A DNA stretch of 64,000 bases from Candidatus Helarchaeota archaeon (GCA_019058315.1 JAHPZH010000002.1:909910-973909), one strand, 5' to 3'. Positions 37,992-59,665 are shown, counted from the stretch's first letter. Numbers and translations are program-made. The notes: generated from the letters alone by a model not told the origin.

Positions 37992-38004
37992 TAACTGCGA
38001 TTAT
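37992..38004 (+). repeat. Right half-site of the 31-bp dispersed repeat (TAACTGCGATTAT)
   Basis: 13/13 match to consensus positions 19-31; left part unrelated. Confidence 0.65.
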
Positions 38005-38174
38005 GAGACACTAAGAAAATACAGAAACTAAAAAAAAGAAATTTGGTTTATAGAATCTTTAAAACGAGGGGAATTTCTATTTCTCAACAATAAAGAAGAT
38101 TCTAATTTAAAAACTTTTAAATAATTTTTCTTAAAAATACAATTAATTCCTTTTTTAAAAAGAAGGTTAAAAAT

Positions 38175-38714
38175 ATGAATAAAGCAGGAGCAGCAGCAGT
38201 AATTTTTTTCCTGTTAGCTGCTGGAGCCATCGGCTATATAGCCTATGAAACGATGCAACCTACTCCTATAGACCCAGGTACTGCGTTATATATATACGAG
38301 AAAATTTTTCCGCCACCTCCACAAAGAAATACTTGGTACACAAAATATGACAGTTATAAATATACAAATCCAGCCTTAACTAACATACTTTTCAGTGAAT
38401 TACGAATAGAATTTGAAATTAGACCTGGAGAACATGTATTATTTAGTTTTTCGACACAAATTTTTCTTCCTTCTGGTGGACCCTTTACGGCAGCTGCCTT
38501 TTTCGTTGTTGATGGAATTGATAAAGAAGCTGGTTATCCATCTTGCGGTGTTGCAATGGATACATCAGATGGTGCGAGTATTCAAAGTTGCTCAATGTTA
38601 ATGGCCCTTTCCTTATCTCCGGGAACACACAACGTTACAGTTAAGATTATTGGGACTGACACAGGAATAAGATTTTCTGACACTAGTATGGCAGTCCAAA
38701 CTTATACAACTTAA
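38175..38714 (+). CDS. N-terminally anchored surface beta-sandwich protein
   Basis: N-terminal TM, Pro-rich linker, 'LSPGTHNVTV'. Confidence 0.65.
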   Translation: MNKAGAAAVIFFLLAAGAIGYIAYETMQPTPIDPGTALYIYEKIFPPPPQRNTWYTKYDSYKYTNPALTNILFSELRIEFEIRPGEHVLFSFSTQIFLPSGGPFTAAAFFVVDGIDKEAGYPSCGVAMDTSDGASIQSCSMLMALSLSPGTHNVTVKIIGTDTGIRFSDTSMAVQTYTT

Positions 38715-38744
38715 TTTTTTTTTATTAAATCTGAAAAAATGATT

Positions 38745-38775
38745 TATACCCAATTTCAGACTTAACTGCGATTTT
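38745..38775 (+). repeat. 31-bp dispersed repeat copy 1
   Basis: TATACCCAATTTCAGACTTAACTGCGATTTT, 1 difference from consensus. Confidence 0.95.
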
Positions 38776-38937
38776 GAAAAATTGAAATTTAGAAGTTTCT
38801 CATTTTATGTAGTGATTTATAATTATTTTTTAACCTGTTATTGGTGAAGGGATGTTCAGAGAAACTTTATTGCCACAAGTTTAAATTTATATTAAATAAT
38901 TATGAGATCTAAATCAGTATATTAGGAGATATAAATC

Positions 38938-39879
38938 TTGGAATTTAAAGAAGCAAAAAAGATAGAAGCAGAAAAGATAGAAAAAAATTTTAGAAATGGT
39001 CCATTTCAAGAGTATAAAGATAAATGTAAGGATATTAAAGGAGAGTTTTCAATTGATGATGCGGGATTTGAGATTTTTCAGGGCCCAATTCTAAATTATA
39101 ATCCAATTATGATAATTGGTTTTAATCCCGGATATGGGAAGAAGGCAGGACCGGCTCAAAAAAACTTAGAACATAGAATATATTATAATATCCACTCTAT
39201 TTATGACACATTTTTAGAAAAGAGAATAAAAGGAGATTATACATATTTTGCTAGAAATCTAAGGAGATATTTTTGTTTTATTTTTCTAAATGAAGAACAA
39301 GCTAATTATAAACACACTTGTATTAATAGGCAATATTTGAAGGAGCGGAAAAGTCATGAAATTGATTCTTCTGCTCAATTTATGGATTATTGTATGAGCT
39401 GCCCACCTGTGGTTCAAAGTAGAAAATGGTTTAAATTAGAAAAAAATGAAATTTCCATACCATTTAAAATATTAGCAAGTGTTTTTGCTACTAACTTGAT
39501 TTTTTTTAAATCACCTGTTGAAGAGAGGCTCCATAATTTAGAGCTTGCCCTTCAATTAAGTCGCTCTATATTAATTGAATTAATAAATAAAGCAAACCCT
39601 AAACTAATAATAACATTCGGAAACGAAGTAGAAGATGAATTAGAGAAATTGCAAAAGGAGAAAAAAATTCGTGAAGACATCAAAATTTGTAGGTTGAATA
39701 ATCCTTCAACAGATAGAAGTGGAGAACTTACAGAACCAGATAACATCGAAAGACTTAAAAAATTGAGAAACTTCATCAAAGAACAGATCCAGAAATCTAG
39801 CGAATTTAGGCAAGAAATAGACTTCATTCTTTATAAAAATAAATTAGAGAAATTAGAGGAATTATTAAAAGTTAGTTGA
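38938..39879 (+). CDS. Uracil-DNA-glycosylase-superfamily protein
   Basis: IMIIGFNPG, TNLIFFKSP, PKLIITFG, LNNPS (HPS-like). Confidence 0.65.
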   Translation: MEFKEAKKIEAEKIEKNFRNGPFQEYKDKCKDIKGEFSIDDAGFEIFQGPILNYNPIMIIGFNPGYGKKAGPAQKNLEHRIYYNIHSIYDTFLEKRIKGDYTYFARNLRRYFCFIFLNEEQANYKHTCINRQYLKERKSHEIDSSAQFMDYCMSCPPVVQSRKWFKLEKNEISIPFKILASVFATNLIFFKSPVEERLHNLELALQLSRSILIELINKANPKLIITFGNEVEDELEKLQKEKKIREDIKICRLNNPSTDRSGELTEPDNIERLKKLRNFIKEQIQKSSEFRQEIDFILYKNKLEKLEELLKVS

Positions 39880-40083
39880 CTTACTTAGCAATAAGTAGTC
39901 TTAAAATAAAAAGAGAAGGAAATTATTTTTGTATTTTAGATAAAAAAAAATTGCACAAATTAAGCTCTAACTCAAAGTAAAAAGTTGAGCTTGTCAGATT
40001 ATAAATAATTAAATGAAGAACTGGATATTTTAACTGAGAAATTCAAAGATGTTTATAAAAAGGTAAAGGGAAATAAGATAAGT

Positions 40084-40734
40084 GTGAAGTTAAAATATAA
40101 AATAGCGTTGGTCGGAGATCCTAAAGTAGGAAAGAGTAACCTCCTTAATAGATATATTGACGGAATCTTTAACCCTCCCCCTTCACGAATAGGGGTAAAA
40201 TTTTATCAAAAGACTGTTCAAATTCCAGGAACAAATGAGGAGGCTCGATTTTTATTCTGGGAAATGATTAACAGAAGATTTCAAGGGATAATCGAGCAGC
40301 ATTTCAAGAGCACGAGTGGAGTCATATTAATTTTCGATACTACAAGAAGGGAAACATTTGATAACCTCACTTATTGGCATGATGAAATCAAAGGGCGCAT
40401 CAAAAATGTTGTTCCCGGGATTTTAATTGGGGCTAAAATGGATCTCGTGGACCAAAGAGTGGTATCAACTAAAGAAGCGCAAGAATATGCAGATAAAATT
40501 AAATATGCATACATTGAAACTTCTGCAAAAACAAATCATAACGTTACCAAAGCTTTTAATTTTATGATTAGGGAGCTTCTAATTCCTGAAAAAGCCAAGA
40601 TCGATGAACTTATTAATAAGATAAAGAAAATAGAGAAAGATGGATTAAAATTTACAGAAGAATTCAAAATATTAAAAAAAATTAAAGAATTAAAAAAATT
40701 TAAAGAAGGATTAAATAAGTTGTATGAAGATTAA
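40084..40734 (+). CDS. Rab-like small GTPase with degenerate G2/G3
   Basis: GDPKVGKS, IGVKFY, GAKMD, ETSAK; WEMIN in place of WDTAG. Confidence 0.88.
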   Translation: MKLKYKIALVGDPKVGKSNLLNRYIDGIFNPPPSRIGVKFYQKTVQIPGTNEEARFLFWEMINRRFQGIIEQHFKSTSGVILIFDTTRRETFDNLTYWHDEIKGRIKNVVPGILIGAKMDLVDQRVVSTKEAQEYADKIKYAYIETSAKTNHNVTKAFNFMIRELLIPEKAKIDELINKIKKIEKDGLKFTEEFKILKKIKELKKFKEGLNKLYED

Positions 40735-40869
40735 AAAAAAATTTAGCTTGCATCATAGAACTAACAATTAATTTATACTTTTTTATGCCGTATTATATTG
40801 CAGGAGTTGTAGCAGATAATTTTAAGAAAATATCTGCTGAATTAAGAAAAGAATTGCTATTATGATAAT

Positions 40870-40900
40870 TATACCCAATTTCAGATTTAACTGCGATTAT
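40870..40900 (+). repeat. 31-bp dispersed repeat copy 2
   Basis: TATACCCAATTTCAGATTTAACTGCGATTAT, 1 difference. Confidence 0.95.
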
Positions 40901-40918
40901 GTTACAAGATGGATAAAC

Positions 40919-43900
40919 TTATATGTTAAGGAAAATTTCATTAACTAAATTTTCGGTATCTTTAAAAATACCCACATTTCCAGCGAATTTCTCTAAATCA
41001 ACCTCAAATTCTTTTTCAAATTTTAATAACATCTCCTTTTGCCTCTCTATGATTAATTTGTTTGGCAATCCTGAGGTAATGAGTGCGATCACTGTATATT
41101 TTCCGTCTTGAATGCCTATTTCGAAATGTTGGTATGATAATTTTTGCATCCCTGTTTCTTTGGCTTCCGCACCTAATTCCATACCAAAACTTCGAATTGC
41201 TGTCAGAAATCCACCAATTAAATCAGAATCTAAGGCGGTTTCAGCGAAATTATAGTTATACATGTTCACTCCGCTTGATTTATTAATCAACATCAAAGCA
41301 AATAAGATCATTCTAGCATATTGTTCATTCATTTTATTTAATTGCCCTCTTAACTGGTTATTTCCTGTTTGGATATTTCTTTTTGTTTGCTCATCTGCTC
41401 CTGGAGATTCAAAATAATTTTTAGTATTACTCTCTAAAAGAATGATTATAGCGTCCATGCAAGTCAATATATCATATTGTAAATTTAGATATGTACGATT
41501 CCAAATTTCATCTTCTGTAATCTTTTCTAGATCAGCAATCCACTTATTAAATATCTCTGTAAATATTTTTGTGACTTGTAAATCAGGAAAATACGAATTT
41601 GATTTTATATGTAATTCTTTTAAAATCAGTAAAATATTATCAATTGGTGCTTTTTCTATACATAAATTATTCAATTCCGAAAGTCTTTGAGTAAATTCGA
41701 ATGCATTATAAACCTTGCTGGTTATTACATCCATGGTAGTAGAGATTTTTCTGGAATATTTAATTGCTAGATTAATAAGATTCTTAATATAGGCTAAAAA
41801 TCCGGTAGCTTGTTTTATATCTTCTAAATAAATATCAATTACAATATAGTCTTGTATTATAATAAGCTCAATAATTATGAGATCTCCACCAACCTTAGCC
41901 ACCCCTGAATATGTAATATGGAATTTTTCCTCTTCTTCTTCTACCTTTGTTACATCTAAAGATGAGATTTGCTCTTTTGCTATTCGATATGCATTAGGTT
42001 TAGTCAAACCTTCAAAATTTATTTCACTATGACTTCTCTGGAGTGTCTGCATTAAGGAAATTAAATTCGATGAACTAAGTTTTTTAGGTTGGACAAGGGG
42101 ACATTTAATTTGAACAACATTTGGGGTAATTTCCATAGAAATTAACTCACTTTTAGCTGTTTTGTAACTTACTTTTCCATGAATTCGTGATTTTCCACAA
42201 GTTAATGGGGTTAAGATGAAATCTGTTCCTATTGATTCTCCTGGTTCCAAGATATCAATAGTATTTATTGGTGTATCTATTTCATATTGCTGTTTTTTAA
42301 TTTCCAATGAAACTAAAATATCTCTTATTATTCTATCAGAGGTGTTTTCGACAACTATTTTATACCTAATAGCTCCTCCGACATAATCATAAGCTCTTCT
42401 TATTACAAGATCTTCTTTTAATATTTTAATAGGTTTTTTGGTTGGTTGAATAACCTTGATTTCTCCTTTTTGTTTCCTAGCTGCGTAAAGAACTATCGCA
42501 ACGATAACAACTGAGCCAATCATTATAATTAGAATAATGATAAAAATAATATCACTCTCAGGAAAGAAAAAAAGAGGTAATGATTTCGGAGGGTCGGATC
42601 TAGGAGGCTCATCTTCTGAAACTAACTCTATATAAGCCGAACTCTCTATATATATTATTTCCCAATCACTTCCCCACTCGCCATTTGTATCATCATCCCA
42701 TACTACATGAATATTTCCATTTTCATCTGTAATAATGCAAGGATTCTTACTATCTCCATCATTCCATCCAATAAAATCCGAAATGCAAGTGGCATTAGAC
42801 CACCCTGCAGTTGTATAATTTATATACATAATTTCCCAGTCAGTTCCCCACTCTCCAGTTGTCCAATCCTGCCAAACGACATGAATGTTATCGTCATTAT
42901 CCGCAGCGATGCTTGGATAATTGCTCTCATTGTTATTCCAACCATATATATCTGAAATACAAGATACATTCGACCAACCCATAGATGTATAATTAGCATA
43001 CATAATTTCAGTGTCCGTCCCCCATTCACCATTTGTATCATCCTGCCAAACAACATGTAAATTTCCGTCAACATCTGTGATAATTCTGGAAAAATTACTA
43101 TAAGCATCATTCCAATCCCATATTCCTCCATATCCATCTGAAATTACGGTTACATTTGACCAACCTTTCGCAGTATAATTCACATACATTATTTCTTGAT
43201 CTATTCCCCATTGACCATTTGTTTCATCCTGCCAAACTACATGAATATTACCATTATTATCAATTGCGATCGAAGGATCTGAACTCTCGCCAGTATTCCA
43301 CCCCCAAACTCCCCCATATCCATCTGAAATCACAGTTGCATTCGACCAACCCTCAGCAGCTGTATAATTCGCATACATGATCTCAATATCAGATCCCCAC
43401 TCCCCAATTGTCCAATCATCCCAAGTCACATGAATATTACCGTTATCATCAACGGCAATACTAGAGTGATAACTATTACCATCATTCCATCCGGTGTAAT
43501 CGTCCGAAATTACCGTTGCATTTGACCAACCTTCAGCTGTATAATTAGCATACATAATTTCAACATCTGTTCCCCAAGCACCTACAGTTTCATCGTGCCA
43601 AACAACGTGGACATTTCCAAATTTGTCCGTAGTGATGCTCGGTTCACAACTAGCTTTATCATTCCATCCTAAATAATCATCAGAAATGATGGTCACGTTT
43701 GACCAGCCTGTAGTCATAGTATAATTAACATACATAATTTCTGAATCAGTTCCCCAAGATCCATTCGTATTATCTTGCCAGACGACGTGAATAATGCCAT
43801 TACTATCTGCGGCAACGCTTGAACAACAGCTAGTACCACTGTTCCAACCCCAAAACTCTTTATAACCATCCGAAATTACGGTTGCACTTTTCCATGTGTT

Positions 43901-45385: not shown

Positions 45386-45647
45386 TATAATTCACTAAAA
45401 TTTTTAAATTTTTATGTTAAAATTACTAATTACTACGAATTAATGTCATTTGAAATGAATATATTTTTTAAAAATCACATACAATAAGAATATATATTTG
45501 ATTTTAGAGGTAAGTCAATTTTTTCTAAACTCTTTTCTATTTGTCAAAGTCTCCTTTTTTTTCTATTTCTTCCATAATTATTACCTCAAATTATGGAATA
45601 TTGACTTCTTTAAAACTAATCTTTTCCTTTTTTACCTAAAGAATTGC

Positions 45648-46138
45648 AGAATGCCCCTGCCTTCAGCGGGGGATGCAAGCAACAACGAAGTCAAAATTAT
45701 TTTAGTTATCAATTAGTCTTTAGTGGTTTAAATAGATTGAACAAGCTAGAGTAGGTGATGAAGAAATATAGGGCAATCAAGGTAAGGTTGTATCCCAATA
45801 GAGAAGAGAGAGCATTATTAGATCAGACCTTTGGCTGTTGTCGATTCATCTATAATAAGATGTTGGAGGAGAGGATTAGGGTGTATAAGGAGTTAAAGGA
45901 GGATAAGGATACTCTTTATGCCCATAAATATAAAACAGAGAGGGAGTATAAAGGACAGTTTCCGTTTTTAAAGGATGTTGATGCAAAAGCATTGCAATCT
46001 GAGTGGAGACATCTAAAATCAGCCTATGACAATTTCTTCAGGAATTTTAAGAAGGGTATAAAGAAGGGGTTTCCGAGATTTAAGTCTAAGAAGTCTAAGC
46101 AGTCCTATACAACATTTAATAGTAATAACAACTTGTAA
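45648..46138 (+). mobile_element. Truncated IS200/IS605-family element: left-end hairpin plus 5' third of tnpB
   Basis: Hairpin CCCCTGC-CTTCA-GCGGGGG at 45654-45672 upstream of a tnpB N-terminus. Confidence 0.8.
45755..46138 (+). pseudogene. tnpB: tnpB N-terminal fragment (no RuvC or Zn ribbon)
   Basis: KVRLYPN, TFGCCRFIYN, FLKDVD..ALQ, AYDNFF, GFPRFKSKK, then stop. Confidence 0.9.
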
Positions 46139-46139
46139 A

Positions 46140-46379
46140 ATGGACATCAATGATAATAGCATCGATATAATCATATGTTTCGATGTGTTTCATGCCTTCG
46201 GAGCGAAAGAAGAAAGTATCTTAAAAGAATTTAGCCGAGTATTAAACAAAAATGGGTTTTTGTTAATAAATGACCATCATTACAAAGAGGATGAACTAGT
46301 ATCTAAAGTTTTGAGCCATAAAATCTTTGCTTTGAAAAGGAAAAAAGAAGACTTTTATTTTTTTTTAACTAATGACTAA
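46140..46379 (+). pseudogene. C-terminal fragment of a class I SAM methyltransferase
   Basis: DNSIDIIICFDVFH...EFSRVLNKNG; N-terminal GxG motif absent. Confidence 0.75.
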
Positions 46380-46457
46380 TATGGACAATACATCGTTGCT
46401 GGAAAGCGAAAAGAAATATTGTAATTCTGAATTATTGTGTGTCTATAGAATTAATTC

Positions 46458-46488
46458 TATACCCAATTTCAGACTTAACTGCGATTAG
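46458..46488 (+). repeat. 31-bp dispersed repeat copy 3
   Basis: TATACCCAATTTCAGACTTAACTGCGATTAG, 1 difference. Confidence 0.95.
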
Positions 46489-46603
46489 ATTAATTTAAAA
46501 GACCTATCTTAAAAATATTAACTTATTATAAAAAATATTTTACTTGAAGTTGATATAAAGATAAGAGATAACAAAGAATTTTAGAATTTATGAAGGTGAT
46601 GTT

Positions 46604-47707
46604 ATGATCCCTCTTTTCCCGATAAACTCGATATTTATGGTTTTGGGGCTCATCTCAGTCTTTTCATCAGCAATTGCTGCAATTTTAACCTTGCATCAAT
46701 TTATGTTGACTAAAAATCGTTTAAATCTTTATACCTCATTAGGATGGATATTTTGGCTATTTTTTCTTTTAACCTTTACATTATCTGGTTATTTTTCAAT
46801 TTTCAACCAAGATATTGCGATTATTTTAATGCAAATAAGTATGACTATATCTGTTGCTATAACATTTAGTATGACATTAGCCTTTGATACCATGTCCCGG
46901 GAATCTGCAGATCCCATTAAATTAATCATAATTTCTTTTGTTTCCGCAGCACTTATCATATTTAGTATGACTCCGGGTTCATTGCATTATGAATTTTCTT
47001 CTGGGGTAATATTTTTTTATTGTAATGAGGTATTTATTTTATCATTTTTTATTTTAATGGGGTTTTTATCTTATATACACATTTTTTATAATGCAAAAAT
47101 TCTTTGGGTTGCTCCTAATAACTTAAAATTTCCAGCATTCATGGAGCTCCTAGGTGTGATATTCCTTGCACCAGGGGCATTAATAACACTAGTACTTGGC
47201 ACTAATTTAATTATTTCTGGGATTTCTTTTTTATTTATAGGGTTAGGTACTCTCCCGGTTGCGATAGTATTTGCTAAGTATTCGAAACTGTCCTACATAC
47301 TTCCTTTCAAGGCTTTACGTTTAACGATCATCGAGACTAATAGTGGAATTGCAATCTTCAATCATGTGTGGAATAAATTGGATGATTTGGTGGATGAGCA
47401 GCTTTTTTCAGGCATGTTGCAGGCTATATCTCAAATTTTAAATGAATCTCTTAAAAGGGGAAACGTACAAGAGATAAGGATGGATCGAGCCGTCTTATTC
47501 GTGAAAAGGCTCCCTTCCAATCCCATAGCATGTATTCTGGCTTCCACAAAATCGTCGAGTTCTCTTCAACATGCTTTGGATTCTTTTTCCGATCACTTCA
47601 GCAAAGATTTTGCTCTTTTTTTTGATAATCCACACATGATAGATAACTTCGATAGTGCCAAAAAACTTGTGGAGATCTATTTTCCATTCATCCCTGAGTA
47701 TGATTGA
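46604..47707 (+). CDS. 7-TM membrane protein with C-terminal longin-like domain
   Basis: About 7 TMs, then 'SGIAIFNHVW...DEQLFSGMLQAISQIL...GNVQEI'. Confidence 0.75.
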   Translation: MIPLFPINSIFMVLGLISVFSSAIAAILTLHQFMLTKNRLNLYTSLGWIFWLFFLLTFTLSGYFSIFNQDIAIILMQISMTISVAITFSMTLAFDTMSRESADPIKLIIISFVSAALIIFSMTPGSLHYEFSSGVIFFYCNEVFILSFFILMGFLSYIHIFYNAKILWVAPNNLKFPAFMELLGVIFLAPGALITLVLGTNLIISGISFLFIGLGTLPVAIVFAKYSKLSYILPFKALRLTIIETNSGIAIFNHVWNKLDDLVDEQLFSGMLQAISQILNESLKRGNVQEIRMDRAVLFVKRLPSNPIACILASTKSSSSLQHALDSFSDHFSKDFALFFDNPHMIDNFDSAKKLVEIYFPFIPEYD

Positions 47708-47719
47708 GATTTGTATTAT

Positions 47720-47750
47720 TATATCTAATTTCAGACTTAACTGCGATTAT
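47720..47750 (+). repeat. 31-bp dispersed repeat copy 4
   Basis: TATATCTAATTTCAGACTTAACTGCGATTAT, 2 differences. Confidence 0.95.
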
Positions 47751-48115
47751 AAGACTATGAATATTAAAAAAAGGGATAATTATAAGATTATTTTCGTTTT
47801 TTAATCAAAAATATTGTTTTTATAACTGCTACTATGAATGTCTAAAAAATTTCTATTCTAATAAAAAAAAAGATAAAATTTTGAAGGGTATTATCGCTTT
47901 TTAAGATAAATAAAAATTCCGACTGCTACTCTAATTCCTATTTTAGTTTTCTCAACGATATGATTGGGGCTAATTACATATCTTTATAAATAGGAGTAAT
48001 ACTCATTTTTTATAAGTGATTACAATTGTTTCGTATTACTAGAAGAAACGTCTTAACTGTAGTCATGATATTGATTCATAAGGAGATAAGCTGAAATACG
48101 TAGAGGTGATAATTA

Positions 48116-48790
48116 ATGAGCAAAATATTAGATTTTTGGATGAAAATTTGGTTATACATAATGGCTGCTGGTGGCATATTATTAATCGTACTGGTGGTTG
48201 TATTTTGGAATCAGTTTGATTTGGCAACCCTTTTGGTGTATTTTACTTGGATAGGTCTAGTGCTCCACGTGATGGAGGAATGGCGTTTTCCTGGGGGCTT
48301 CCATTATATCTATAATCTCATGAAAAAATCAGAAAACACAGATCGTTATCCCATGAACAGGGTATCTGACATGTTAACTAATTTCGGGGCTTTAATATTT
48401 GGCTTTGGGAGCATCATCATCGGTGTAAACCCCATAATAGCAATTTCTTTGTTCCTTTTTTGTGGCGTCGAAGTTCTAGCTCATACTGGCATCGGAATTT
48501 ATTCGAACAAATTACTCAATACCCAAGGAAAGAAAATTATCTACAATCCAGGGTTTCTAACAAGCTATCTAGTATTTTTACCTGTCTCAATTGGGTTCAT
48601 TTACATTTTTGCAACAGGAATATTACAAACAGTTTTTACTGATTGGTTGTTGGGTCTGGTTTTGATTGGCGGTATAGGATTTCTTTTAATTTTCCTCCCA
48701 GAAAGGATGTTACGAAACAAAAACTCGCCTTATCCCTTCACCGGGAAATATGAATTTGGATATTATAAGAAATTTATTGAGTTTAAATGA
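48116..48790 (+). CDS. HXXEE-domain membrane protein
   Basis: LHVMEEW..PGGF, YNPG. Confidence 0.85.
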   Translation: MSKILDFWMKIWLYIMAAGGILLIVLVVVFWNQFDLATLLVYFTWIGLVLHVMEEWRFPGGFHYIYNLMKKSENTDRYPMNRVSDMLTNFGALIFGFGSIIIGVNPIIAISLFLFCGVEVLAHTGIGIYSNKLLNTQGKKIIYNPGFLTSYLVFLPVSIGFIYIFATGILQTVFTDWLLGLVLIGGIGFLLIFLPERMLRNKNSPYPFTGKYEFGYYKKFIEFK

Positions 48791-49633: not shown

Positions 49634-49962
49634 AATTGATAGAGTGAGAACTTTCTAGATTTATTATTTTCTCCAATTGGGATAGTAATGATTGTAGGAA
49701 TTGTGGAAGCAATCATAGTAATTATGTTATTAATTAAGAACAATAGAAACCTAAATGAACGTTTACAAAAAGTCGAAAGACAAATTTCTGCTAAGAAAAC
49801 ATTTTGATTTTCTCTCACATGAAAAGCGAAATGATCCAACTAGATAACTTCTGTACGGAATATCTCATGGTAATTTGACATAAAAAATATAAATTTATTA
49901 AAATCACTGAAAAACAATAAAACCCTAAGTTCTAATATAAAAATTTTAATAATATAGCAAAA

Positions 49963-50931: not shown

Positions 50932-51011
50932 TTCTAATAAAAGATCTACAGTGTTTTCTTTCGACGTTTTGATTACCTATTTTTCTTTAGAAACTAAAAA
51001 TAAATAATGAT

Positions 51012-52100: not shown

Positions 52101-52193
52101 CTACTCAATTATAAGATTTCTTTTAATGCAAGATTTTTTAAATTTTCCATAACTTATAAAGCAATTAATTAATGAATATTCTTCAAAAAAGAG

Positions 52194-52817
52194 TTGAAAT
52201 TTGTGATAAAAAATCAAAAAATAATAGGAATTTGCGGAATGATTGCTCCAGTGATATTTAACTTGATATGGATTATCGGGGGTTTCATACAGCCCGGATA
52301 TAGTCATATTCGCGACGATGTAAGCACACTTATGGCATCGGGAGCACCGAACAAACTTTTATTCGATATTATGCATATTGCTGAATTAATTTTAATAATA
52401 ATATTTTTAATTGGCTTACTTCAAGTAATGAGAGATTTAGGAAACTCGTTTGTTGCTCCAATTTTATTTTTAATTTCACAGAGCATGGAACTTACTGTTA
52501 CAATATTTTTCCCTTTAGATTATGGTGGTGAGATTACCACATTAATTGGAACCATGCATTTTATACTTGTAGTGATACTTGGTTTCATTGCAATGGGTGG
52601 CATGTTTACAATGTGGTTTGAATTAAAGAAGGTAGACGAATGGAAGGGATATGATGTTTATTCGCTGATAACATTCATTTGTACTTTAACTCTTGGGCTT
52701 TTCTTATCAATGACTGCAGGAAGCGAAATAATGGGATTAATTGAAAGGTTCGTAATTGTTGCTAACGGACAATATTTCTTTGTAATAGCGTTAAAGGTTT
52801 ATCTTACAAGTGAATGA
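52194..52817 (+). CDS. DUF998-like membrane protein
   Basis: PGYSHIRDDVSTL, MHF, GLIER. Confidence 0.75.
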   Translation: MKFVIKNQKIIGICGMIAPVIFNLIWIIGGFIQPGYSHIRDDVSTLMASGAPNKLLFDIMHIAELILIIIFLIGLLQVMRDLGNSFVAPILFLISQSMELTVTIFFPLDYGGEITTLIGTMHFILVVILGFIAMGGMFTMWFELKKVDEWKGYDVYSLITFICTLTLGLFLSMTAGSEIMGLIERFVIVANGQYFFVIALKVYLTSE

Positions 52818-52912
52818 AATTAAATTTTATAAATCCCAATATATAATTAAGTTCAACTTTATTAACTAATTTAAATAATATACTTATTTAAACCAAAAAA
52901 GAGGGTATTTGG

Positions 52913-53629
52913 ATGTTATTTCGCAAGCTTGATGAAGATCGTGATCAAAAAATTGACGACTCAAAGCAATATCTTAAAAAGATACGAAATGATCTTGAAA
53001 TTTTAAAAAAGACAGACACTGGCATAGATTTTGATAATGTTGGAAAAAAACTTGATGCAATAAGTAAAATTATTGAGAAATTGCCTGAAAAAATTCCCAA
53101 GATAGAAATCACATCCAAATATATTAAAGAAATTTTCCAACTTCTAGAAATGTCCAACCAAAGCAATATTGCTTTATTAGTTGATATTGAAACTAAATTG
53201 GTAATTATGGGGTCTAGAATCCACTTGGTGGGTGTTCTTCAAAAAATAATTAAAAATCCTGATCGAAGGAGTATAGCACCTAGGGGAAAAATTTGGAAAA
53301 ATATTAAAGCATGTTTTCCTAGGTTCAAAGGTTTTAATGTGACCGTCTGGGGTGGTGGTGGATACATGACAAAAGCTGAAAGTTTTTCCGTTAAGTTAGA
53401 CGATTTTAAATATAAAAATGAAAAAACAGATTCTAAACTAACATCAAATCAAGCCCGTGAATCAGCTTTTAAAGAATTAATAAGTCTTGTAAGATCATTC
53501 CTCTCGTGGGAAATAGAGAAATATAGGGTGGACGAATATCTCAGGACTTGGACTTTTGATAAGGATTTAATAGTTAAGTTTCAATTCGATTGGCGTTCCT
53601 ATGAGGAACGATATGATCCAACAAGATAA
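52913..53629 (+). CDS. Hypothetical protein (N-terminal coiled coil)
   Basis: 238-aa ORF with RBS-like GAGGG upstream. Confidence 0.6.
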   Translation: MLFRKLDEDRDQKIDDSKQYLKKIRNDLEILKKTDTGIDFDNVGKKLDAISKIIEKLPEKIPKIEITSKYIKEIFQLLEMSNQSNIALLVDIETKLVIMGSRIHLVGVLQKIIKNPDRRSIAPRGKIWKNIKACFPRFKGFNVTVWGGGGYMTKAESFSVKLDDFKYKNEKTDSKLTSNQARESAFKELISLVRSFLSWEIEKYRVDEYLRTWTFDKDLIVKFQFDWRSYEERYDPTR

Positions 53630-53692
53630 CTTTCATAGAAAATTTTGATAAAATCGTAATAATGGTAAGAAGAAAATGTTTTAAATTTATTG

Positions 53693-53722
53693 TCTACCCA
53701 ATCTCAAACTTACTGCGATTAT
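53693..53722 (+). repeat. 31-bp dispersed repeat copy 5 (degenerate)
   Basis: TCTACCCAATCTCAAACTTA-CTGCGATTAT, 3 substitutions + 1 deletion. Confidence 0.88.
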
Positions 53723-53821
53723 AATAATTCTGTAGCATACTCATATTTTACTATTTTTGGTAGACAAAAATAAACGCTTTGATTATATGAATAAATTAAT
53801 AATAAATATTCTACTAAAATA

Positions 53822-54076
53822 ATGAATAACACATTTAGGTTTCAAAAGGAGTTGAATAAATTTAGTAAAATATCTGAAGATAAAGCTGTTAAATTAGCTA
53901 AAAAAGCGCTTTCGGAGAAAGGGTGGGATATTGAGAAATACATAATGAAAAAAGAAGAGTCTGATGAGAAATGGATAATCACTTTCGAAGGTAAAGAACC
54001 CCGACCTCCTGGAGATGAAATGACTATTTATGTTATTAAAAAAGATGGATCCATTAAGGTATTTATTGGAGAATAA
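53822..54076 (+). CDS. Small PepSY-like protein
   Basis: ISEDKAVKLAK...WIITF...IYVIKKDGSI. Confidence 0.5.
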   Translation: MNNTFRFQKELNKFSKISEDKAVKLAKKALSEKGWDIEKYIMKKEESDEKWIITFEGKEPRPPGDEMTIYVIKKDGSIKVFIGE

Positions 54077-54198
54077 GAGAATTTTAAATTCTTAATTCCA
54101 ATTTCCTATAATAATTTTGCAGCAAATATCCATTTTTTGACTTCTTCGTGAGAGATATGATATAATAAGATAACCTGTAAAAATTTTAGTGGTAAATA

Positions 54199-55467
54199 AT
54201 GGATAAAATAACTTCTAAAGAAGATAAGAAATCTTTTCTATTATTAAAAAAGAAATGCGGGCTTATAGAAAGAGATTTTGCAGTTAATAAAAAAGGACAG
54301 CTCTATTATCTTAACCTTTCTGGTAAATATTTGAAAAAAATAGAAGGGTTCGAAAATTTCTCCCACTTACAAAAATTATATCTTTCTAATAATGAAATCA
54401 CGAAGATAGAGGGATTGGATAAGCTCTCCCAATTAAAAGAATTATATCTTGATAAAAATCAGATCAAAAAGATTGAAGGATTAGATAACCTCTCCCAATT
54501 GCGATTTTTATTCATTCCAAGTAATCCGATCACGAAGATAGAGGGATTGGATAAAATTTCTCAATTAACAGAATTAAATCTTGGGGAACTTAAGATCACT
54601 AAGATAGAAGGGTTGGAAAAGCTCTCCCTATTAATCTCATTATCAATTTCAAGAAATGAGATCAAAAAGATTGAGGGGTTGGAAAAGCTCTCCCAATTAA
54701 GAGAATTATGGCTTTCTGAAAATAAAATCAAAAAGATTGAGGGGTTAGAAAAGCTCTCCCAATTAATCTCATTATCAATTTCAAAAAATGAGATCAAAAA
54801 GATTGAGGGGTTGAACAACCTCTCCCAATTACAAACTTTATATCTTCCTAATAATCAGATTACAAAGATTGAGGGATTAGAAAACCTCTCCCAATTACAA
54901 GCATTAAACCTGAGTGAAAATCAGATCTCAAAAATCGAGGGGTTGGAAAACCTCTCCCAATTAAGAGAATTATACTTAGATGGAAATCTGATTGCGAAGA
55001 TTGAGGGGCTAGAAAACCTCGGTCATATAACAAGATTGGAGCTTCATAAAAATAGAATTTCTAAACTAGAAGGTTTGGAAAACCTCTCTGCATTAGAATG
55101 GTTAAATCTTTCTGATAATCAGATTATGAAAATTGAGGGTTTGAAGACTCTCTCCCAATTGAAAAAATTGAACCTAATAAACAACAAGATCTCAAAGATA
55201 GAGGGATTGGAATACCTCTCCAAATTAGCAGAGTTATATCTTTTTGGTAATCCCATAACTAAAATCGAAGGATTGAATATTCAGGATGTAAAAGCAGTAG
55301 TTATATACTGTCACCAAAAAAAAATACAGGACAAAAAAGATATGATTGCGGAATTAGAATATATTAAAGCACAAATAAATAAACCAGGAATTAAATTGTT
55401 AGAATTAAAATATTTAAAAAGACGCGTTCAGGAATTAACTGATAAATTAAGCGTTATTGATATATAA
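54199..55467 (+). CDS. Leucine-rich repeat protein (SDS22-like 22-aa repeats)
   Basis: About 15 'LxxLxLxxNxIxKIEGLxxLSQ' units; 66-bp DNA periodicity. Confidence 0.95.
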   Translation: MDKITSKEDKKSFLLLKKKCGLIERDFAVNKKGQLYYLNLSGKYLKKIEGFENFSHLQKLYLSNNEITKIEGLDKLSQLKELYLDKNQIKKIEGLDNLSQLRFLFIPSNPITKIEGLDKISQLTELNLGELKITKIEGLEKLSLLISLSISRNEIKKIEGLEKLSQLRELWLSENKIKKIEGLEKLSQLISLSISKNEIKKIEGLNNLSQLQTLYLPNNQITKIEGLENLSQLQALNLSENQISKIEGLENLSQLRELYLDGNLIAKIEGLENLGHITRLELHKNRISKLEGLENLSALEWLNLSDNQIMKIEGLKTLSQLKKLNLINNKISKIEGLEYLSKLAELYLFGNPITKIEGLNIQDVKAVVIYCHQKKIQDKKDMIAELEYIKAQINKPGIKLLELKYLKRRVQELTDKLSVIDI

Positions 55468-55484
55468 ATGATCTAAAACTATTC

Positions 55485-55515
55485 TGTTGCCAATTTCAGA
55501 TTTAATTGCATTTAT
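55485..55515 (+). repeat. 31-bp dispersed repeat copy 6 (degenerate)
   Basis: TGTTGCCAATTTCAGATTTAATTGCATTTAT, 7 differences. Confidence 0.7.
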
Positions 55516-55575
55516 AGAACATTATTTTTTAATACTAAAAACTAAAAAGCTTAAAAAAAGGAAAAAAATTGAAGA

Positions 55576-57090
55576 TTATTGTTGCTTTTTGAGATAAACC
55601 AAGATTAAAACCACAGCTGCACCAATTCCAACAAAAATAACTGTAAGTGGAATTATTAATTGATCTCCCGCTCCTTGTAGCATCAAGAGGAGCAAAGGTA
55701 ATAAATTCTGTTCACCAGCTGAAGAGGGTCTTTCTAATAAGCGCATATTAGCATAGAAACTGGCGTATAACGTATTTTGGGCTTTGTCATTTGTCTGATT
55801 GCCGTAGTACCATTCGGGATCTAATGTACCATATCCTCCAAACACTATGCCAATAGGATTTATTCCTAATGGTAGACTGGTCACGCTTCCAAGATTTTGC
55901 CCGGTGTAGTTAACTGTTCGATTAATGGAGATCATCCACTCTATAATCGTATGGTTGCGACCAGATTCTTGCCCAGTCACATTGAAGCCAAAAGCCACAG
56001 TATAATTAAGATTGTTTAGAGAAGGTCCAAAATAACAAGTTATGTCTCGGTAACCACCTCGCTCAGTATGAAATCTTAAATCCTTAGTTCCATTATTATT
56101 AAGGTCAAGGAAAAGAAAGCCCGCATCATTAGCATCAGTGTTATTATCAGGTTCTACGTCATAGCAAATATATAGGTGGGTATTATCATGCTTGAGAAAC
56201 ACACTTATATTGTCGTCTGGATGGTTTGAAATTGGTTTAAAGAAGAAATGATATCGGGTCGCGTCGTCCCACTCGCCTGGAGTCATAATGCCGTCAATTT
56301 TAGGTGTTATAGTTTTGTATGGGCATAATAAATTAAGAAGTGGTCTATCTAATAAGAGCAAATCGGCATAGAAACTGGCATCGTTTGTACCCACAGGATT
56401 ATCATCTGTCTGATTGCCGTAGAGCCATTCAGGTGATAGTGTGCCGTATCCTCCAAAAACTACACCAATGGGATTTGTTCCAAATGGAAGACTAGATGCG
56501 CTTGTTAGATTCTGCCCTATGTAATTAGCTGTTCGATTAATGGAGATCATCCATTCTATAATTGTATGGGTGCGAGCAGGTTCTTGTGCGGTCAAATTGA
56601 AGCCAAAGGCAGCAGTAAAATTAAGGTTTGGTAGATTTCCAATGAAGGTCTGACTTACAAATCGAGATCCATCTCTTACCACTTGGAAACTAACATCTTT
56701 GTTTCCAGTATTATTGAGGTCAAGGAATAGATGGCCCGCATCATCGGTGCTATTATCATCATCTGGTTCAACATCATAGCACATAAATAGATGGGTATCA
56801 TTGTGCTTGAGAAAAATACTAATATTATCATCTGGGTGCCCTGAAGTTGGTCTAAAGAAGAAATAATATCGAGCAGCATCATTCCACTCTCCTGGAGACA
56901 TAAGACCATCGATCGTGGGTGTAAGAGCTGTTTTGGGACATAATAAAGTGGTATCTATAGAAAGTATATGGGTTGTTTCAAAATCATTCGACTGCGTTAC
57001 TTTGATTAATGGAGAAAATGAATTTGCTAGAAATAATGAACCTATGAACATCTGAAGGATTATTAAAACAAAAATTTTGCTTTTTTTCAA
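55576..57090 (-). CDS. Surface protein with two tandem CBM9/DOMON-like domains and a C-terminal anchor
   Basis: Duplicated ~205-aa unit starting 'TPxIDGxMxPGEWxDA'; signal peptide; TM + KKQQ. Confidence 0.8.
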   Translation of the reverse strand: MKKSKIFVLIILQMFIGSLFLANSFSPLIKVTQSNDFETTHILSIDTTLLCPKTALTPTIDGLMSPGEWNDAARYYFFFRPTSGHPDDNISIFLKHNDTHLFMCYDVEPDDDNSTDDAGHLFLDLNNTGNKDVSFQVVRDGSRFVSQTFIGNLPNLNFTAAFGFNLTAQEPARTHTIIEWMISINRTANYIGQNLTSASSLPFGTNPIGVVFGGYGTLSPEWLYGNQTDDNPVGTNDASFYADLLLLDRPLLNLLCPYKTITPKIDGIMTPGEWDDATRYHFFFKPISNHPDDNISVFLKHDNTHLYICYDVEPDNNTDANDAGFLFLDLNNNGTKDLRFHTERGGYRDITCYFGPSLNNLNYTVAFGFNVTGQESGRNHTIIEWMISINRTVNYTGQNLGSVTSLPLGINPIGIVFGGYGTLDPEWYYGNQTNDKAQNTLYASFYANMRLLERPSSAGEQNLLPLLLLMLQGAGDQLIIPLTVIFVGIGAAVVLILVYLKKQQ

Positions 57091-57226
57091 GAAAATTTAC
57101 TCCAAAATTTTTATAATTATTTATTTTGCTATATCTGATTATTTAATTTTTAAAAATTTTTAGGAATGATTTAACTAAATATTTCAAATGTTTAAAGAAC
57201 AGACATTTGAATGAATTAAAAATTCA

Positions 57227-57949
57227 CTATGAATCTTTTAGACCAATTTTAAACCCACACCAAACACATTCTATCGATGCTCCAGGAGTAGGGACTTTAT
57301 CAATTGGTCCTTTACAATTTGGACATCGCAAAGCTTCAAGTTCTTTTTCCAACCCCTCATATTTAGCTCCTCCCTTTTTTATTTCTGCCTTGATTCTATC
57401 TAAATTCATTAAATGTTTCTTATTAGTTGGTTCAATTTTATAGGCTGCTTCATAACAAAGAATGGCGTTTTTAATTTCTCCAAGGTTCTCATGGACTTTA
57501 CCTTTAGCATTTAAAACATCTAAATATTTTGGTTGTAATTTCAGAGCCCTCTCGAAAAAGTCAATTGCCCCATTAAAATTTCCAAGCTTAGCTTCCTTAT
57601 TTCCTAAATAATAGAGCCGTTTTGGTAGTTGCATCCATTTTTTCATTGCTTTATAAAAGTAAAGGCTTTTCTTTAAGTCATACTTTTTTTTGCCAAAAAA
57701 GATGTAAATTTTCTCTTCGCTTAATATTAATTCTGTATAATTGTAATCTATATCATTTCGTGATGAAACTGATACAATCATATGCATTTTAAGAGTTTTT
57801 GGTGTTCCCTTTTTAGGTTTAATGCATAGATTTTCTTCTGTTAATTCAATTTCGGATTCGATTTTATCAGACTTTTTTAGATTCTTAGAAGGAATGGTTT
57901 GAGAAAAAAACCCCTTCTTTTCATGAAAGGAAATTATTTCTTCTATCAT
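57227..57949 (-). CDS. PH-like + TPR + C-terminal Zn-ribbon protein
   Basis: 'IELTEENLCIKPK'; two TPRs; CPNC...CVWCG. Confidence 0.7.
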   Translation of the reverse strand: MIEEIISFHEKKGFFSQTIPSKNLKKSDKIESEIELTEENLCIKPKKGTPKTLKMHMIVSVSSRNDIDYNYTELILSEEKIYIFFGKKKYDLKKSLYFYKAMKKWMQLPKRLYYLGNKEAKLGNFNGAIDFFERALKLQPKYLDVLNAKGKVHENLGEIKNAILCYEAAYKIEPTNKKHLMNLDRIKAEIKKGGAKYEGLEKELEALRCPNCKGPIDKVPTPGASIECVWCGFKIGLKDS

Positions 57950-58129
57950 TTTTTTTCTCCAAATAAGTGAATTAAGGATTTTATTTTCATTTCCTTATTT
58001 AAAAATATCCATAATATTTGAAAACAACTATTTTTTTATCTTTTCTAATGATATAAAATGGATGGAGCTAAAGTTGAAAGTCCTCATATGATCAATTTTT
58101 AAATAAAACAATAAAAAAAATTCTAATTA

Positions 58130-59560
58130 TTACTTCCCACTTCTCCGGTCGGGACGTAATTTGGCTCGTGCATATGTATAACGAAATCTGAGTCCCATTC
58201 TATCTTTCAATGGTTTCATGAATTGTCCAACAGTAATCCCACCTTTTTTACACAAATCCGCTAATACTCTCCCGAACTTTTCTGGATTATCTATATGTTC
58301 CTCGGGTAAACCGAAACAGCCAGAACAAACCATATTTGCTTCATTAGGACAGATAGCACCACAACCAGAATTAGTAATAAAACCACAACACACATACCCC
58401 TGATTCAAAAAGCAGATATTCGGATCCATAATTCCTTCAAAATCTCGTTTATATCCTGTTATTGCCATATCTGGGCTTTTTCTATCACATTGATCGCAAA
58501 CAATTGTTTGACCAGCATCAAATCTTTCATCAAGTGAAAGTTTAAGCAATGCAACTCCAATTATATCTCTTGTTAATTCTGGTATGCTTGTAAGAATACT
58601 AATTGCAAGAGGACCTAATATTGGAGGATTTGCAGTTGCCACAGCTGTTAAATCCACTGCTTTTGCTCCCAATACATCTTTAGTTGGAAGCTCTAATTTC
58701 CTTAATCCCGCAATTTCTAGAATATTAGCATTAATATGAATATGTCCGAAATTTGGTAACTTCAAAGCAATAGTAGCAAATTCGATTATTTGAGCAATAT
58801 GTTTATCTGATAATTTTTCAACACTAATTGCCAATTTAGCAAGATCTACGGCTTCGGGATCAGCGGGTTTGGTTGAAATTCCCCACTCGCCCATTACTGG
58901 CTTGTTACCTTTTGGCCATCTCACTCCTGGTGCTGTAGCAGTGAGTGGTCCAAAGCATAATTTACCTTTTTTAAGGATACAATCAGCTCCACGCATCTCA
59001 CAGACTTCACAAACGTTAGTACCTGGATAATTCTCAGCTACCAAATACGTGGCAATGAAATAGACTGCACTCTTATAATTATGTGGTCTTGGAGGACAAC
59101 CAGGCATCCAAGCGTCGATTTTAACTATGTTCTCGTTAGGAACTACTTTGTCGGTGAATTTAGGAACATTTTCAATAGGTATAGCAAAATTATCAATAAT
59201 AGATTCCGCAGTTATAAATTTCCGTTTAGTGCATTCTTCAATAGGATAAATATTAGCAAGTCCTGCAACTGAACCATAACATGCACAAGTTCCATGCATA
59301 ATCAGGACTTTAGCTTTCTTGCGGATTGTCTCAAGTAAATGAATATCGTGTTCAGTACGAATTTGTCCTTCCACCATGCCAATATCAATTGAACCATCAT
59401 GCATATCTTCTAGTTGTTTGTCTTTTGTATCGACAACAGCTGCCCAATAAACTATCTCTAAAGCTGGTAAAATATCTAAAAGCTCTTCATGTAAGTCGAG
59501 TAGGGACTGATGGCAACCCCAACAACTACCGAGTTGAACAAAAGCTATTTTTATACCCAT
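58130..59560 (-). CDS. mvhG: [NiFe]-hydrogenase small subunit, MvhG-like, extended
   Basis: GSCWGC, VEG, GTCACYG, PGCPP, distal cluster motifs CDQC...CCG...CGAICP...CSGCFG. Confidence 0.85.
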   Translation of the reverse strand: MGIKIAFVQLGSCWGCHQSLLDLHEELLDILPALEIVYWAAVVDTKDKQLEDMHDGSIDIGMVEGQIRTEHDIHLLETIRKKAKVLIMHGTCACYGSVAGLANIYPIEECTKRKFITAESIIDNFAIPIENVPKFTDKVVPNENIVKIDAWMPGCPPRPHNYKSAVYFIATYLVAENYPGTNVCEVCEMRGADCILKKGKLCFGPLTATAPGVRWPKGNKPVMGEWGISTKPADPEAVDLAKLAISVEKLSDKHIAQIIEFATIALKLPNFGHIHINANILEIAGLRKLELPTKDVLGAKAVDLTAVATANPPILGPLAISILTSIPELTRDIIGVALLKLSLDERFDAGQTIVCDQCDRKSPDMAITGYKRDFEGIMDPNICFLNQGYVCCGFITNSGCGAICPNEANMVCSGCFGLPEEHIDNPEKFGRVLADLCKKGGITVGQFMKPLKDRMGLRFRYTYARAKLRPDRRSGK

Positions 59561-59634
59561 TATATTTTCACCAACTAATTGATTTTTAGAATTAAATAAA
59601 AATACTTCGTATTGATTTTATATCGAAAATAAAC

Positions 59635-59665
59635 CTTACACAATTTCAGATTTAACCATGATTAC
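59635..59665 (+). repeat. 31-bp dispersed repeat copy 7 (most degenerate)
   Basis: CTTACACAATTTCAGATTTAACCATGATTAC, 8 differences. Confidence 0.65.

Follow-up and report, generated by a model that had tools for sequence, protein, structure and literature searches.

A probable integron-like cassette array with a lineage-specific 31-nt junction site in a Candidatus Helarchaeota genome

Co-oriented 31-nt sites and the modules between them

The window analysed here, a stretch of 64,000 nucleotides from a Candidatus Helarchaeota archaeon, contains within 21.7 kb seven copies of a 31-nt site, all intergenic and on the + strand, together with a remnant of the right arm of the site at 37992. The sequence-only reading had located these copies at 38745, 40870, 46458, 47720, 53693, 55485 and 59635, always between genes and with none in the first 37 kb, and each of these observations was verified. 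Sites m1 (38745-38775), m2 (40870-40900) and m3 (46458-46488) have one mismatch each to the consensus and m4 (47720-47750) has two, which puts four of the seven copies within 1-2 mismatches. Site m5 (53693-53722) is 30 nt long, with one base missing and four mismatches. Sites m6 (55485-55515) and m7 (59635-59665) are the most diverged, m7 above all, which retains its left arm but has an altered right arm. The position from which the array had been said to start, 37992, is a genuine partial copy (37992-38004, + strand) that retains the right arm alone, TAACTGCGATTAT, 740 nt to the left of m1; it is also the best nhmmer match genome-wide after the seven copies. All copies point the same way, and they decay with distance from one end.

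No site match was obtained in 100 shuffles of the window. With 17% of the array being non-coding, an intergenic position for 7/7 copies has a chance probability of about 5e-6. An nhmmer search of the whole 5.79-Mb assembly returned these seven copies only at E<1e-5. Because the search found nothing beyond them and the remnant, the site is unique to this locus and not scattered over the genome. It was also not found in 150 class-level and 150 phylum-level genomes and is therefore lineage-specific; one genome of the same family likewise gave no match. The best eight site copies differ by 0-2 changes, and orthologous genes differ by 10-13%. The sequence shared among the copies is about 35 nt, with no common element body. 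Folding energies of the 31-mers are 0 to -1.7 kcal/mol, and no hairpin forms; with 130 nt of flank, the sites fold no better than shuffles (z of -1.4 to +1.1) and have no stem in common. The best dyad in the site, 6/8 positions around ACTTAA, is equalled by 365 of 500 shuffles; a simple tyrosine-recombinase core site would not usually lack a significant dyad in this way.

Module C0 (38005-38744, + strand) consists of one gene of 179 aa and no family (38175-38714), whose stop lies 30 nt ahead of m1. Module C1 (38776-40869, + strand) carries a 313-aa gene and, at 40084-40734, a Ras-family GTPase that has a paralogue with 83% DNA identity at C5:333193-333911 of the assembly. Beyond m2, where the flanking genes are convergent, module C2 (40901-46457) combines a 1488-aa propeller-repeat protein, encoded on the minus strand, with the truncated relic of an IS605-type TnpB. 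Module C3 (46489-47719, + strand) has a single 367-aa gene (46604-47707), the 7TM-longin gene of the sequence-only reading. Six genes make up module C4 (47751-53692), encoding HXXEE, 247-aa, TPR and DUF998 proteins, a paralogue of the C3 gene and, in last position, a 238-aa protein. Module C5 (53723-55484, + strand) comprises an 84-aa gene and an LRR protein. Past m6, again between convergent genes, module C6 (55516-59634) is read entirely from the minus strand, with genes for a 504-aa protein, a TPR protein and an MvhG-like (Oxidored_q6) protein. In most modules, the stop of a + strand gene lies 10-65 nt ahead of the next site.

The Ras-family, TPR, LRR and MvhG-like labels proposed from the sequence were borne out by family matches, but the UDG-like label was not (E of 0.06, not significant). 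The MvhG-like gene in C6 has a resident counterpart with 77% DNA identity at C5:1145664-1147076, and the orthologues of that resident copy are located in Hdr/Mvh operons. Cargo genes in the array are paralogues of resident genes and their composition is genome-typical rather than foreign, so that acquisition of foreign genes is unsupported.

Module joints in related lineages

Comparison with relatives was based on one 13.7-kb contig from a related MAG (L056) and three short contigs. L056 contains four good copies of the site and a fifth that is degenerate. All of them are intergenic and point the same way, and they separate a different set of modules: Lactamase_B/rhodanese, 7TM-longin, TPR with radical SAM, a hydrolase with two small genes, and a propeller protein with a 238-aa protein. 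One module is common to both arrays. L056 5889-7185 matches window 46449-47751 at 97.2%, and the DNA on both sides is unrelated. The homology starts 9 nt before m3, the left border of the shared module, and stops at the last base of m4, its right border; m3 itself is identical to L056 5897-5927 at 31/31 positions. Within the shared 7TM-longin module, 95.5% of codons at conserved residues are identical, as are 112/114 upstream bases, compared with 77-85% identical codons in four other shared genes. This far lower divergence fits a recent exchange of the module.

A joint of the same kind was found in a third lineage, L063, in which a 75-aa gene and its site match L056 at 91%. The homology breaks at the end of the site and is followed by an ADP-ribosylglycohydrolase gene where L056 has the propeller gene. 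The breaks at the repeat that the sequence-only reading had proposed to look for are therefore present, at either border of the 7TM-longin module and between L063 and L056. Its proposal of a gene-capture platform built from recombination sites is supported as far as the module joints are concerned, but not with regard to the capture of foreign DNA, the cargo being resident paralogues. In a fourth lineage, L060, a 133-nt stretch holding m5 (53631-53763 in the window) is missing and the flanking modules are joined directly, the indel carrying 4 filler bases and no duplication. Lacking this one site, the two modules are fused, and site loss of this sort explains the multi-gene modules.

Not all rearrangement occurs at sites. 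Two breakpoints between the window and L056 are off-site, to the left of the 238-aa gene, which is the last gene of a module in both arrays, and to the left of the radical SAM gene. The latter gene lies within the array in L056 and 8 kb outside it, with no site, in the window genome. The region to the left of the array is rearranged as well, without sites. In an unrelated metagenome contig, L010, two segments flank a 50-nt site-bearing piece, and both segments are also found elsewhere without this piece.

Candidate enzymes and rival explanations

As the sequence-only reading had noted, the window offers no recombinase: a search for recombinase families among ORFs of 36-64 kb gave no match, and no recombinase gene is present in or beside the array in either the window genome or L056. 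PF00589 (tyrosine recombinase) has no match within about 120-125 kb of the array. Only two tyrosine recombinases are encoded in the genome, both Xer-like (C5:822784-823839 and C7:268585-269727), and PF16795 has no match in it, which speaks against the border of an SSV-type element, where inserted DNA lies between int(N) and int(C) fragments of a split integrase gene. A 61-aa int(C)-like fragment was found solely in L010, 3.8 kb from the site of that contig. A Y1 (IS200-type) transposase was not detected in the genome; the Y2 (IS91-type) profile had no match here and none in control genomes either, so that its negative result is uninformative. No excision or circular junction was seen in the available reads, which are short contigs only.

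The truncated TnpB relic (IS605 OrfB, 45629-46138), overlooked by the sequence-only reading, matches the first 510 nt of a full element at C3 of the assembly and ends 320 nt before m3. We rejected the possibility that the site is the end of this IS200/IS605 TnpB element, since full-length copies lack the motif and no Y1 transposase was found. In an accretion array anchored at a tRNA, tmRNA or rRNA gene, the repeat would copy the 3' end or tail of that gene, its attB. Within the assembled sequence the site does not appear to be such a tail: the window contains no tRNA gene and no Rfam family, and a search of the assembly, which takes in the region following the complete 23S gene, gave no further site copy. 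The sole 16S gene is assembled without its 3' half and tail, and ARAGORN tRNAs number only 26.

The repeat could be a selected cis-acting expression element (3'-end- or terminator-associated, promoter or operator), with the reshuffling due to homologous recombination or unrelated to it. In 10/12 cases the site follows the end of a + strand gene by 10-180 nt, and in 8/12 a + strand gene begins downstream; one L056 copy ends 2 nt before a start codon, where its initial TATA could be the TATA box of a leaderless mRNA; and both the site-less junction in L060 and the rearrangements at site-less places would suit such an element. However, neither gene relation is general, given that a + strand gene is missing downstream of m2 and m6 and upstream of m7. 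The fixed distance from gene starts or ends that the sequence-only reading had weighed as counter-evidence to recombination sites is not seen, distances varying from 2 to 365 nt. Moreover, no T-run or hairpin terminator accompanies the sites, a regulon site limited to one strand of 22 kb in 5.8 Mb has no obvious rationale, and the low divergence of the shared module and its ends at sites are left unexplained. We regard an expression element as unlikely. A lower probability still attaches to the site being the conserved core of a small non-autonomous, MITE- or REP-like insertion element, with copies gained and lost apart from the modules. The m5 stretch that L060 lacks would agree with such an element, especially as it contains 9-nt inverted repeats, TTGTCTACC and GGTAGACAA, and so would the inserted piece in L010. 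These inverted repeats are missing at the other copies, however, and the short common sequence has neither terminal inverted repeats nor target-site duplications, a point also made by the filler bases of the L060 indel. Nor is the site the end of the genome's TnpB element or of the neighbouring relic, and the lack of a Y1 transposase and the restriction to one locus and one strand, where many loci and both strands would be expected, argue further against this origin.

Two known types of recombination site were also considered. Xer/dif sites consist of two inverted arms of about 11 bp with a 6-bp spacer and occur once per chromosome. A chromosomal site of this type, multiplied by elements exploiting the host Xer recombinase into an IMEX-like array, would account for the single locus, for the two Xer-like enzymes being the only tyrosine recombinases and for co-oriented copies that decay from one end. 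We nevertheless consider it very improbable: the site shows no 11-6-11 dyad, its best dyad being no better than in shuffles, and the GC skew does not turn at the locus. Nor was the site found in the same-family genome or in the 300 class- and phylum-level genomes, whereas in archaea the known dif sites are conserved between related genera (PMC2958812). Least credible of the alternatives, and hardly tenable, is a true integron array that lacks an integrase (CALIN) and has atypical attC sites. In its favour are the integrons and CALINs reported from Asgard MAGs (Ghaly et al. 2022, PMC9668308), the uniform orientation of an array in which sites follow genes, and the GTTAAGT on the minus strand of the site, compatible with the GTTRRRY core. 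Against this, the folding values reveal no attC-type imperfect palindrome, the attC-like layout is only half present, several modules are multigenic with genes on both strands and their own upstream regions, and no tyrosine recombinase lies within 120-125 kb.

Taken together, we consider it probable that the locus is an integron-like cassette array whose exchangeable modules are joined at a lineage-specific, non-attC site. The same site stands between other modules in relatives, and the array therefore behaves like an integron-type gene-shuffling platform; it can also be likened to att-flanked islands accreted in a row. The 31-nt site would be the junction of a chromosomal row of modules particular to this Asgard lineage, each module comprising a single gene or a small number of genes that have upstream DNA of their own. 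Modules would be inserted, lost and exchanged among related lineages at sites of constant direction, and site loss would merge neighbours into larger units. As a short, asymmetric stretch of double-stranded DNA without a hairpin, the junction would be served by an enzyme encoded elsewhere. The joints, we infer, are the work of a site-specific recombinase, with the two Xer-like tyrosine recombinases as possible candidates; the modules may pass through a free (circular) form, and new ones probably enter at the better-conserved left end. No crossover point was found, and therefore homologous recombination between the 31-nt repeats could give the same joints.

A further-reaching version of the integron-like array is possible, and we put it forward tentatively. 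The locus may be an Asgard platform of its own, in which a host enzyme (a diverged Xer-like or an unrecognised one) acts in trans on the 31-nt site, copying resident genes into the polar array and exchanging them between lineages. Its cargo would then include small GTPases as well as longin, TPR, LRR and propeller proteins of eukaryote-signature type. If true, such a platform would supply the mechanism behind the paralogue expansions that characterise Asgard genomes.

Comparison with known systems

The array resembles integron arrays, including sedentary chromosomal ones and CALINs, in that co-oriented sites of recombination type part gene modules, a gene commonly stops shortly ahead of the site and sites are more similar within a lineage than between lineages. 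Module set and order vary among relatives with joints at the sites, as between the window and L056 and between L063 and L056, and CALINs likewise require no adjacent integrase. In contrast to integron attC, an imperfect palindrome that forms a single-stranded hairpin (R''-L''...L'-R'), the site here is 31 nt long and asymmetric and forms no such hairpin; neither IntI, the tyrosine recombinase with an extra domain that integrons encode beside attI, nor a recognisable attI was found. Unlike integron cassettes, the modules have their own upstream regions, may be multigenic on both strands and carry paralogues of resident genes.

Co-oriented direct repeats are also left by serial insertion in att-flanked accretion, as in the CIME/ICE of Streptococcus, the tycheposon islands of Prochlorococcus (bioRxiv 10.1101/2020.12.28.424599) and archaeal tRNA genes. 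There, too, inner elements may lack an integrase of their own, and hybrid end sites are possible, comparable to the leftmost copy with its right arm only and the rightmost with mainly its left arm. The repeat described here, by contrast, appears to lie outside any tRNA, tmRNA or assembled rRNA gene, neither end of the array has an integrase gene or fragment, and the modules, of down to one gene, have no element functions.

Within Asgard archaea, the integrative elements of Atabeyarchaeia (Yucahu-i) use a short AT-rich, non-tRNA att motif, AATTAACTTAT, carry genes of their own for a tyrosine integrase and for replication, and were seen as circular forms in reads (Valentin-Alvarado et al. 2024, PMC11529989). 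The host type is the same, the attachment sequence serves more than one element, and smaller units are nested in larger ones, as here; the hexamer TTAACT is common to that motif and the 31-nt site. By analogy, the motif may count as a precedent for the cassette-array reading. The Helarchaeota array differs in having no element genes, no circles seen and a conserved sequence of 31 nt. In the pdif modules of Acinetobacter plasmids and in IMEX arrays, modules are similarly bounded by short sites, of 28 nt, and the host recombinase is encoded elsewhere; those sites have an 11-6-11 dif dyad and, in pdif, alternate in orientation, whereas the sites here show no significant dyad and point in one direction.

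A co-oriented 31-nt site confined to one locus

Seven copies of a 31-nt site (m1 to m7) lie on the plus strand at 38745, 40870, 46458, 47720, 53693, 55485 and 59635. The first four carry one or two mismatches to the consensus, the copy at 53693 lacks one base, and those at 55485 and 59635 are the most diverged. At up to three mismatches the consensus matched four times in the window and never in 100 window shuffles; the diverged copies were added by repeat finding and direct reading of the sequence. All seven copies are intergenic, although only 17% of the array is non-coding, confirming the number, strand and placement noted in the sequence-only reading. When the whole assembly (5.79 Mb, 12 contigs, the window being C5:909910-973909) was scanned with approximate matching and an nhmmer profile, these seven were the only matches at E<1e-5, and thus the motif is unique to the array locus; the genome-wide scatter of copies that the same reading had named as contrary evidence was not seen. 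The next best nhmmer match, at 37992-38004 and 740 nt left of the first copy, is a partial site consisting of the right arm only (TAACTGCGATTAT). On the minus strand of the window's own contig, 15 nt matching the right arm (C5:988939-988953) fall inside a 246-aa ORF and were taken as chance. A k-mer screen for further locus-restricted repeats returned mainly tandem paralogue clusters.

The site was compared with known site types. Folding energies of the 31-mers reach -1.7 kcal/mol at most, and when the flanks are included the folding is no better than that of shuffled sequence. The best inverted-arm layout pairs 6 of 8 positions around ACTTAA and was matched or beaten by 365 of 500 shuffles. 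With such weak folding and a dyad no better than shuffled sequence, the site is neither an attC-type hairpin nor a dif-type dyad. Scans found no tRNA genes or Rfam families in the window or in L010, a metagenome contig carrying the site core, and the GC skew of the 1.4-Mb contig does not turn at the array. ARAGORN detected only 26 tRNA genes in the assembly, in which the 16S rRNA gene is represented by its first 828 positions at a contig end (C12:50-897); the tail of that gene, a possible source of the site, is missing from the assembly.

A TnpB relic at 45629-46138 corresponds to the first 510 nt of an IS605-type element, comprising about 126 nt of left end and the first 127 tnpB codons before stopping abruptly at 46138. 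Its identity is 87% to a full 424-aa copy on another contig (C3:1385000-1387400) and 84% to a further copy on contig C6. The site was rejected as an end of this element because the relic stops 320 nt short of m3, the nearest site, with unassigned DNA in between, and the full-length copies contain no 31-nt motif.

Gene content of the modules

The site intervals contain one to six genes each. Named C0 to C6 independently of the contigs, the modules hold a 179-aa gene (C0); a 313-aa gene and a Ras-family GTPase (C1); a 1488-aa propeller-repeat protein and the truncated TnpB (C2); a 367-aa gene at 46604-47707 (C3); six genes including HXXEE, TPR, DUF998 and 238-aa genes and a paralogue of the 367-aa gene (C4); an 84-aa gene and an LRR protein (C5); and three minus-strand genes, among them a TPR and an MvhG-like protein (C6). 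For most module genes the genome contains paralogues at other loci, and the propeller, LRR, TPR and 7TM families likewise have members outside the array. The Ras gene shares 83% DNA identity with its genomic paralogue and the MvhG-like gene (58130-59560, minus strand) 77% with its own; in both cases the duplication limits do not match site positions. Searches found no closer relatives of the other module proteins. The tetranucleotide composition of the modules is typical of the genome, and by these sequence features the cargo looks native rather than foreign.

The MvhG-like array gene is a stray copy, with 82% protein identity to the one at C5:1145664-1147076, and close relatives of its protein family in other MAGs reside in operons of the Hdr/Mvh type, together with Fer4 and CCG-domain genes. 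A tandem duplication of about 615 nt (55784-56947, 74-80% identical) lies within a 504-aa gene with no family assigned (55576-57090). Module C4 also has, between two convergently oriented genes, a 32-nt stretch (49819-49850) that matches the final codons of the 238-aa gene (53601-53632) at 84% identity and may be what is left of the end of an earlier module.

Modules and breakpoints in related lineages

Cluster look-ups of module proteins led to L056, a 13.7-kb contig of a related MAG (GCA_048887025.1) that encodes a copy of the 367-aa protein with 97% identity. L056 has four strong sites (5897, 7156, 8968 and 10778), all intergenic and on the strand of the 367-aa gene. These are preceded by a degenerate copy at 4334 that immediately follows a cheY-like gene. 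Its module set differs from that of the window: a Lactamase_B/rhodanese module, the 367-aa gene, TPR plus radical SAM, an alpha/beta hydrolase with two 75-aa genes, and a propeller plus 238-aa gene. The sole high-identity block in common is L056 5889-7185, which equals window 46449-47751 (m3, gene and m4) at 97.2%. Homology runs from 9 nt before m3 to the last base of m4, with unrelated DNA beyond on both sides. Between L056 and this genome, the 367-aa gene has identical codons at 95.5% of conserved residues, and upstream of it 112 of 114 bases agree, compared with 77-85% identical codons for the cheW-like, cheY-like, radical SAM and 238-aa genes. The 367-aa module is therefore much younger than the genomic background, which fits the expectation for a module that would have been recently exchanged. 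Site m4 differs between the two genomes in its left arm, by two substitutions and a 3-nt gap, though the module on its left is 97% identical, a weak hint that the site may travel with the module on its right.

Further contigs of related lineages were informative. L063 and L056 have a 75-aa gene and its site in common at 91%; beyond the site the two part, L063 with an ADP-ribosylglycohydrolase gene and L056 with the propeller gene. In L060, the 238-aa gene adjoins the upstream region of the 84-aa gene, with four bases in place of the 133 nt that contain m5; site loss of this kind fuses two modules and accounts for multi-gene modules. In L061 the gene that flanks the array on the left has a homologue, with no array beside it.

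Not all breakpoints lie at sites, and the region left of the array is itself variable. On their left sides, the 238-aa and radical SAM blocks common to L056 and this genome break off away from any site. The radical SAM gene, within the array in L056, is located 8 kb right of the last site in this genome with no site adjoining. In both L056 and L061, the cheW-like/cheY-like pair (window 24241-25008) is directly followed by other DNA, so that the 12-kb chemotaxis cluster plus MCP of the window (25009-37923) is an insertion or deletion relative to both; its edges carry no 31-nt site. Two direct repeat pairs of 83-94 nt, 81-86% identical (60615-60697 with 61413-61495, and 16369-16462 with 16697-16790), each bracket a short stretch, in one case a 214-aa gene adjacent to an amidase gene; the repeats resemble gene ends that were duplicated on either side of an insertion.

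Outside these lineages, a sequence-only covariance model of the site gave only noise in 150 genomes of the class and nothing in 150 genomes of the phylum, and the single other genome of the same family contained no site match. The core was found in no public viral contigs. One public genome-contig match was ascribed to chance, being coding sequence of an ABC transporter; public metagenome contigs returned the same coding sequence and L010. When the left flanking gene of the array was used as query for an empty site, no homologue was found in the six other genomes of the order. L010 (also L048/L051), a 5.4-kb contig and the sole other public occurrence of the exact core, is a mosaic of an HTH gene piece, an 868-nt segment identical to the TYW3 locus of a 1.9-Mb archaeal MAG, and a 4-kb segment that is identical to other contigs and carries a C-terminal SSV-type integrase fragment of 61 aa. 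Between the TYW3 and 4-kb segments, each of which occurs elsewhere without the site, lie 50 nt with the site, including 13 additional nt of right flank identical to those beside the first L056 site. The arrangement may represent a genuine joint or a chimera produced in assembly, and L010 was for that reason left out of the support.

Candidate enzymes, mechanism and known systems

The genome encodes two tyrosine recombinases (C5:822784-823839 and C7:268585-269727). Both are Xer-like, with scores far below the cut-off for the XerA family; the closer of the two lies 125 kb from the array. Profile searches of the genome found no serine recombinase, Y1 transposase or SSV-type integrase; the Y2 profile had no match even in control genomes, and its blank carries no weight. 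Five weak to moderate Cas1 family matches (24-42 bits) are located inside open frames of 1474-2772 aa (contig positions C6:307676-308380, C7:35450-35872, C11:726840-727508, C1:396293-396946 and C11:840577-841251). A 225-aa gene (37198-37875, minus strand) facing the left end of the array has no Pfam match, belongs to a family of about 190 representatives and is DUF6308-like by language-model features. Its predicted structure (pLDDT 94.5) most resembles HhH-GPD DNA glycosylases, for example OGG2, MagIII and MutY, at modest Z scores (7.4-4) of a range that helical proteins can reach by chance. This gene was rejected as a cis-encoded enzyme in intI-like geometry, since its L061 homologue, 84% identical, stands without an array and the L056 array begins beside the cheY-like gene instead. 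Four DNA read runs yielded only short contigs of related strains, whose joints had sides under 30 nt and none at sites.

Taken together, the sequence data fit a lineage-specific cassette array: co-oriented sites stand at the junctions, relatives carry different modules, joined at the sites, one module seems recently exchanged, one site was lost with fusion of its two modules, and the sites stay nearly identical while the genes drift. The array ends may bear on the mechanism. The leftmost remnant is a right arm only and the rightmost copy mainly a left arm; such hybrid end sites would be expected after insertion at a chromosomal site with crossover near TAAC, as we infer from a single example per end. 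Site-specific recombination is the simplest mechanism for the joints, and homologous recombination at the 31-nt repeats is a possible one. The main rival holds that the site acts in gene expression and that module shuffling is a by-product. The sequence-only reading, which had proposed a cassette system with site-specific recombination sites, is thus supported in part: the comparison shows the cassette-junction behaviour, whereas the recombination mechanism and its enzyme are putative.

Asgard genomes are large for archaea and hold many lineage-specific paralogues of eukaryote-signature families. To our knowledge, little is established about the mechanism by which these paralogues duplicate and move. 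An array with modules exchanged at a defined short site would provide a concrete and testable one, and the site offers a handle for an enzyme search, for metagenomic time series of module turnover and for following the recruitment of resident genes into arrays.

Our literature search found no published description of such non-attC junction sites in Asgard archaea. By attC structure and integrase the array falls outside the integron family, and by dyad and conservation outside Xer/dif. Aloposons, elements with giant genes at tRNA sites (PMC8813620), were set aside as a different kind of element. Functional relatives of the array are accreted att-flanked islands, for example the tycheposon islands, the elements of Atabeyarchaeia, whose att motif is short and AT-rich (PMC11529989), and integrons and CALINs, which have been reported from Asgard MAGs as well (PMC9668308). 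An array exchanging modules at this site would be separate from the attC/IntI integrons known from archaea.
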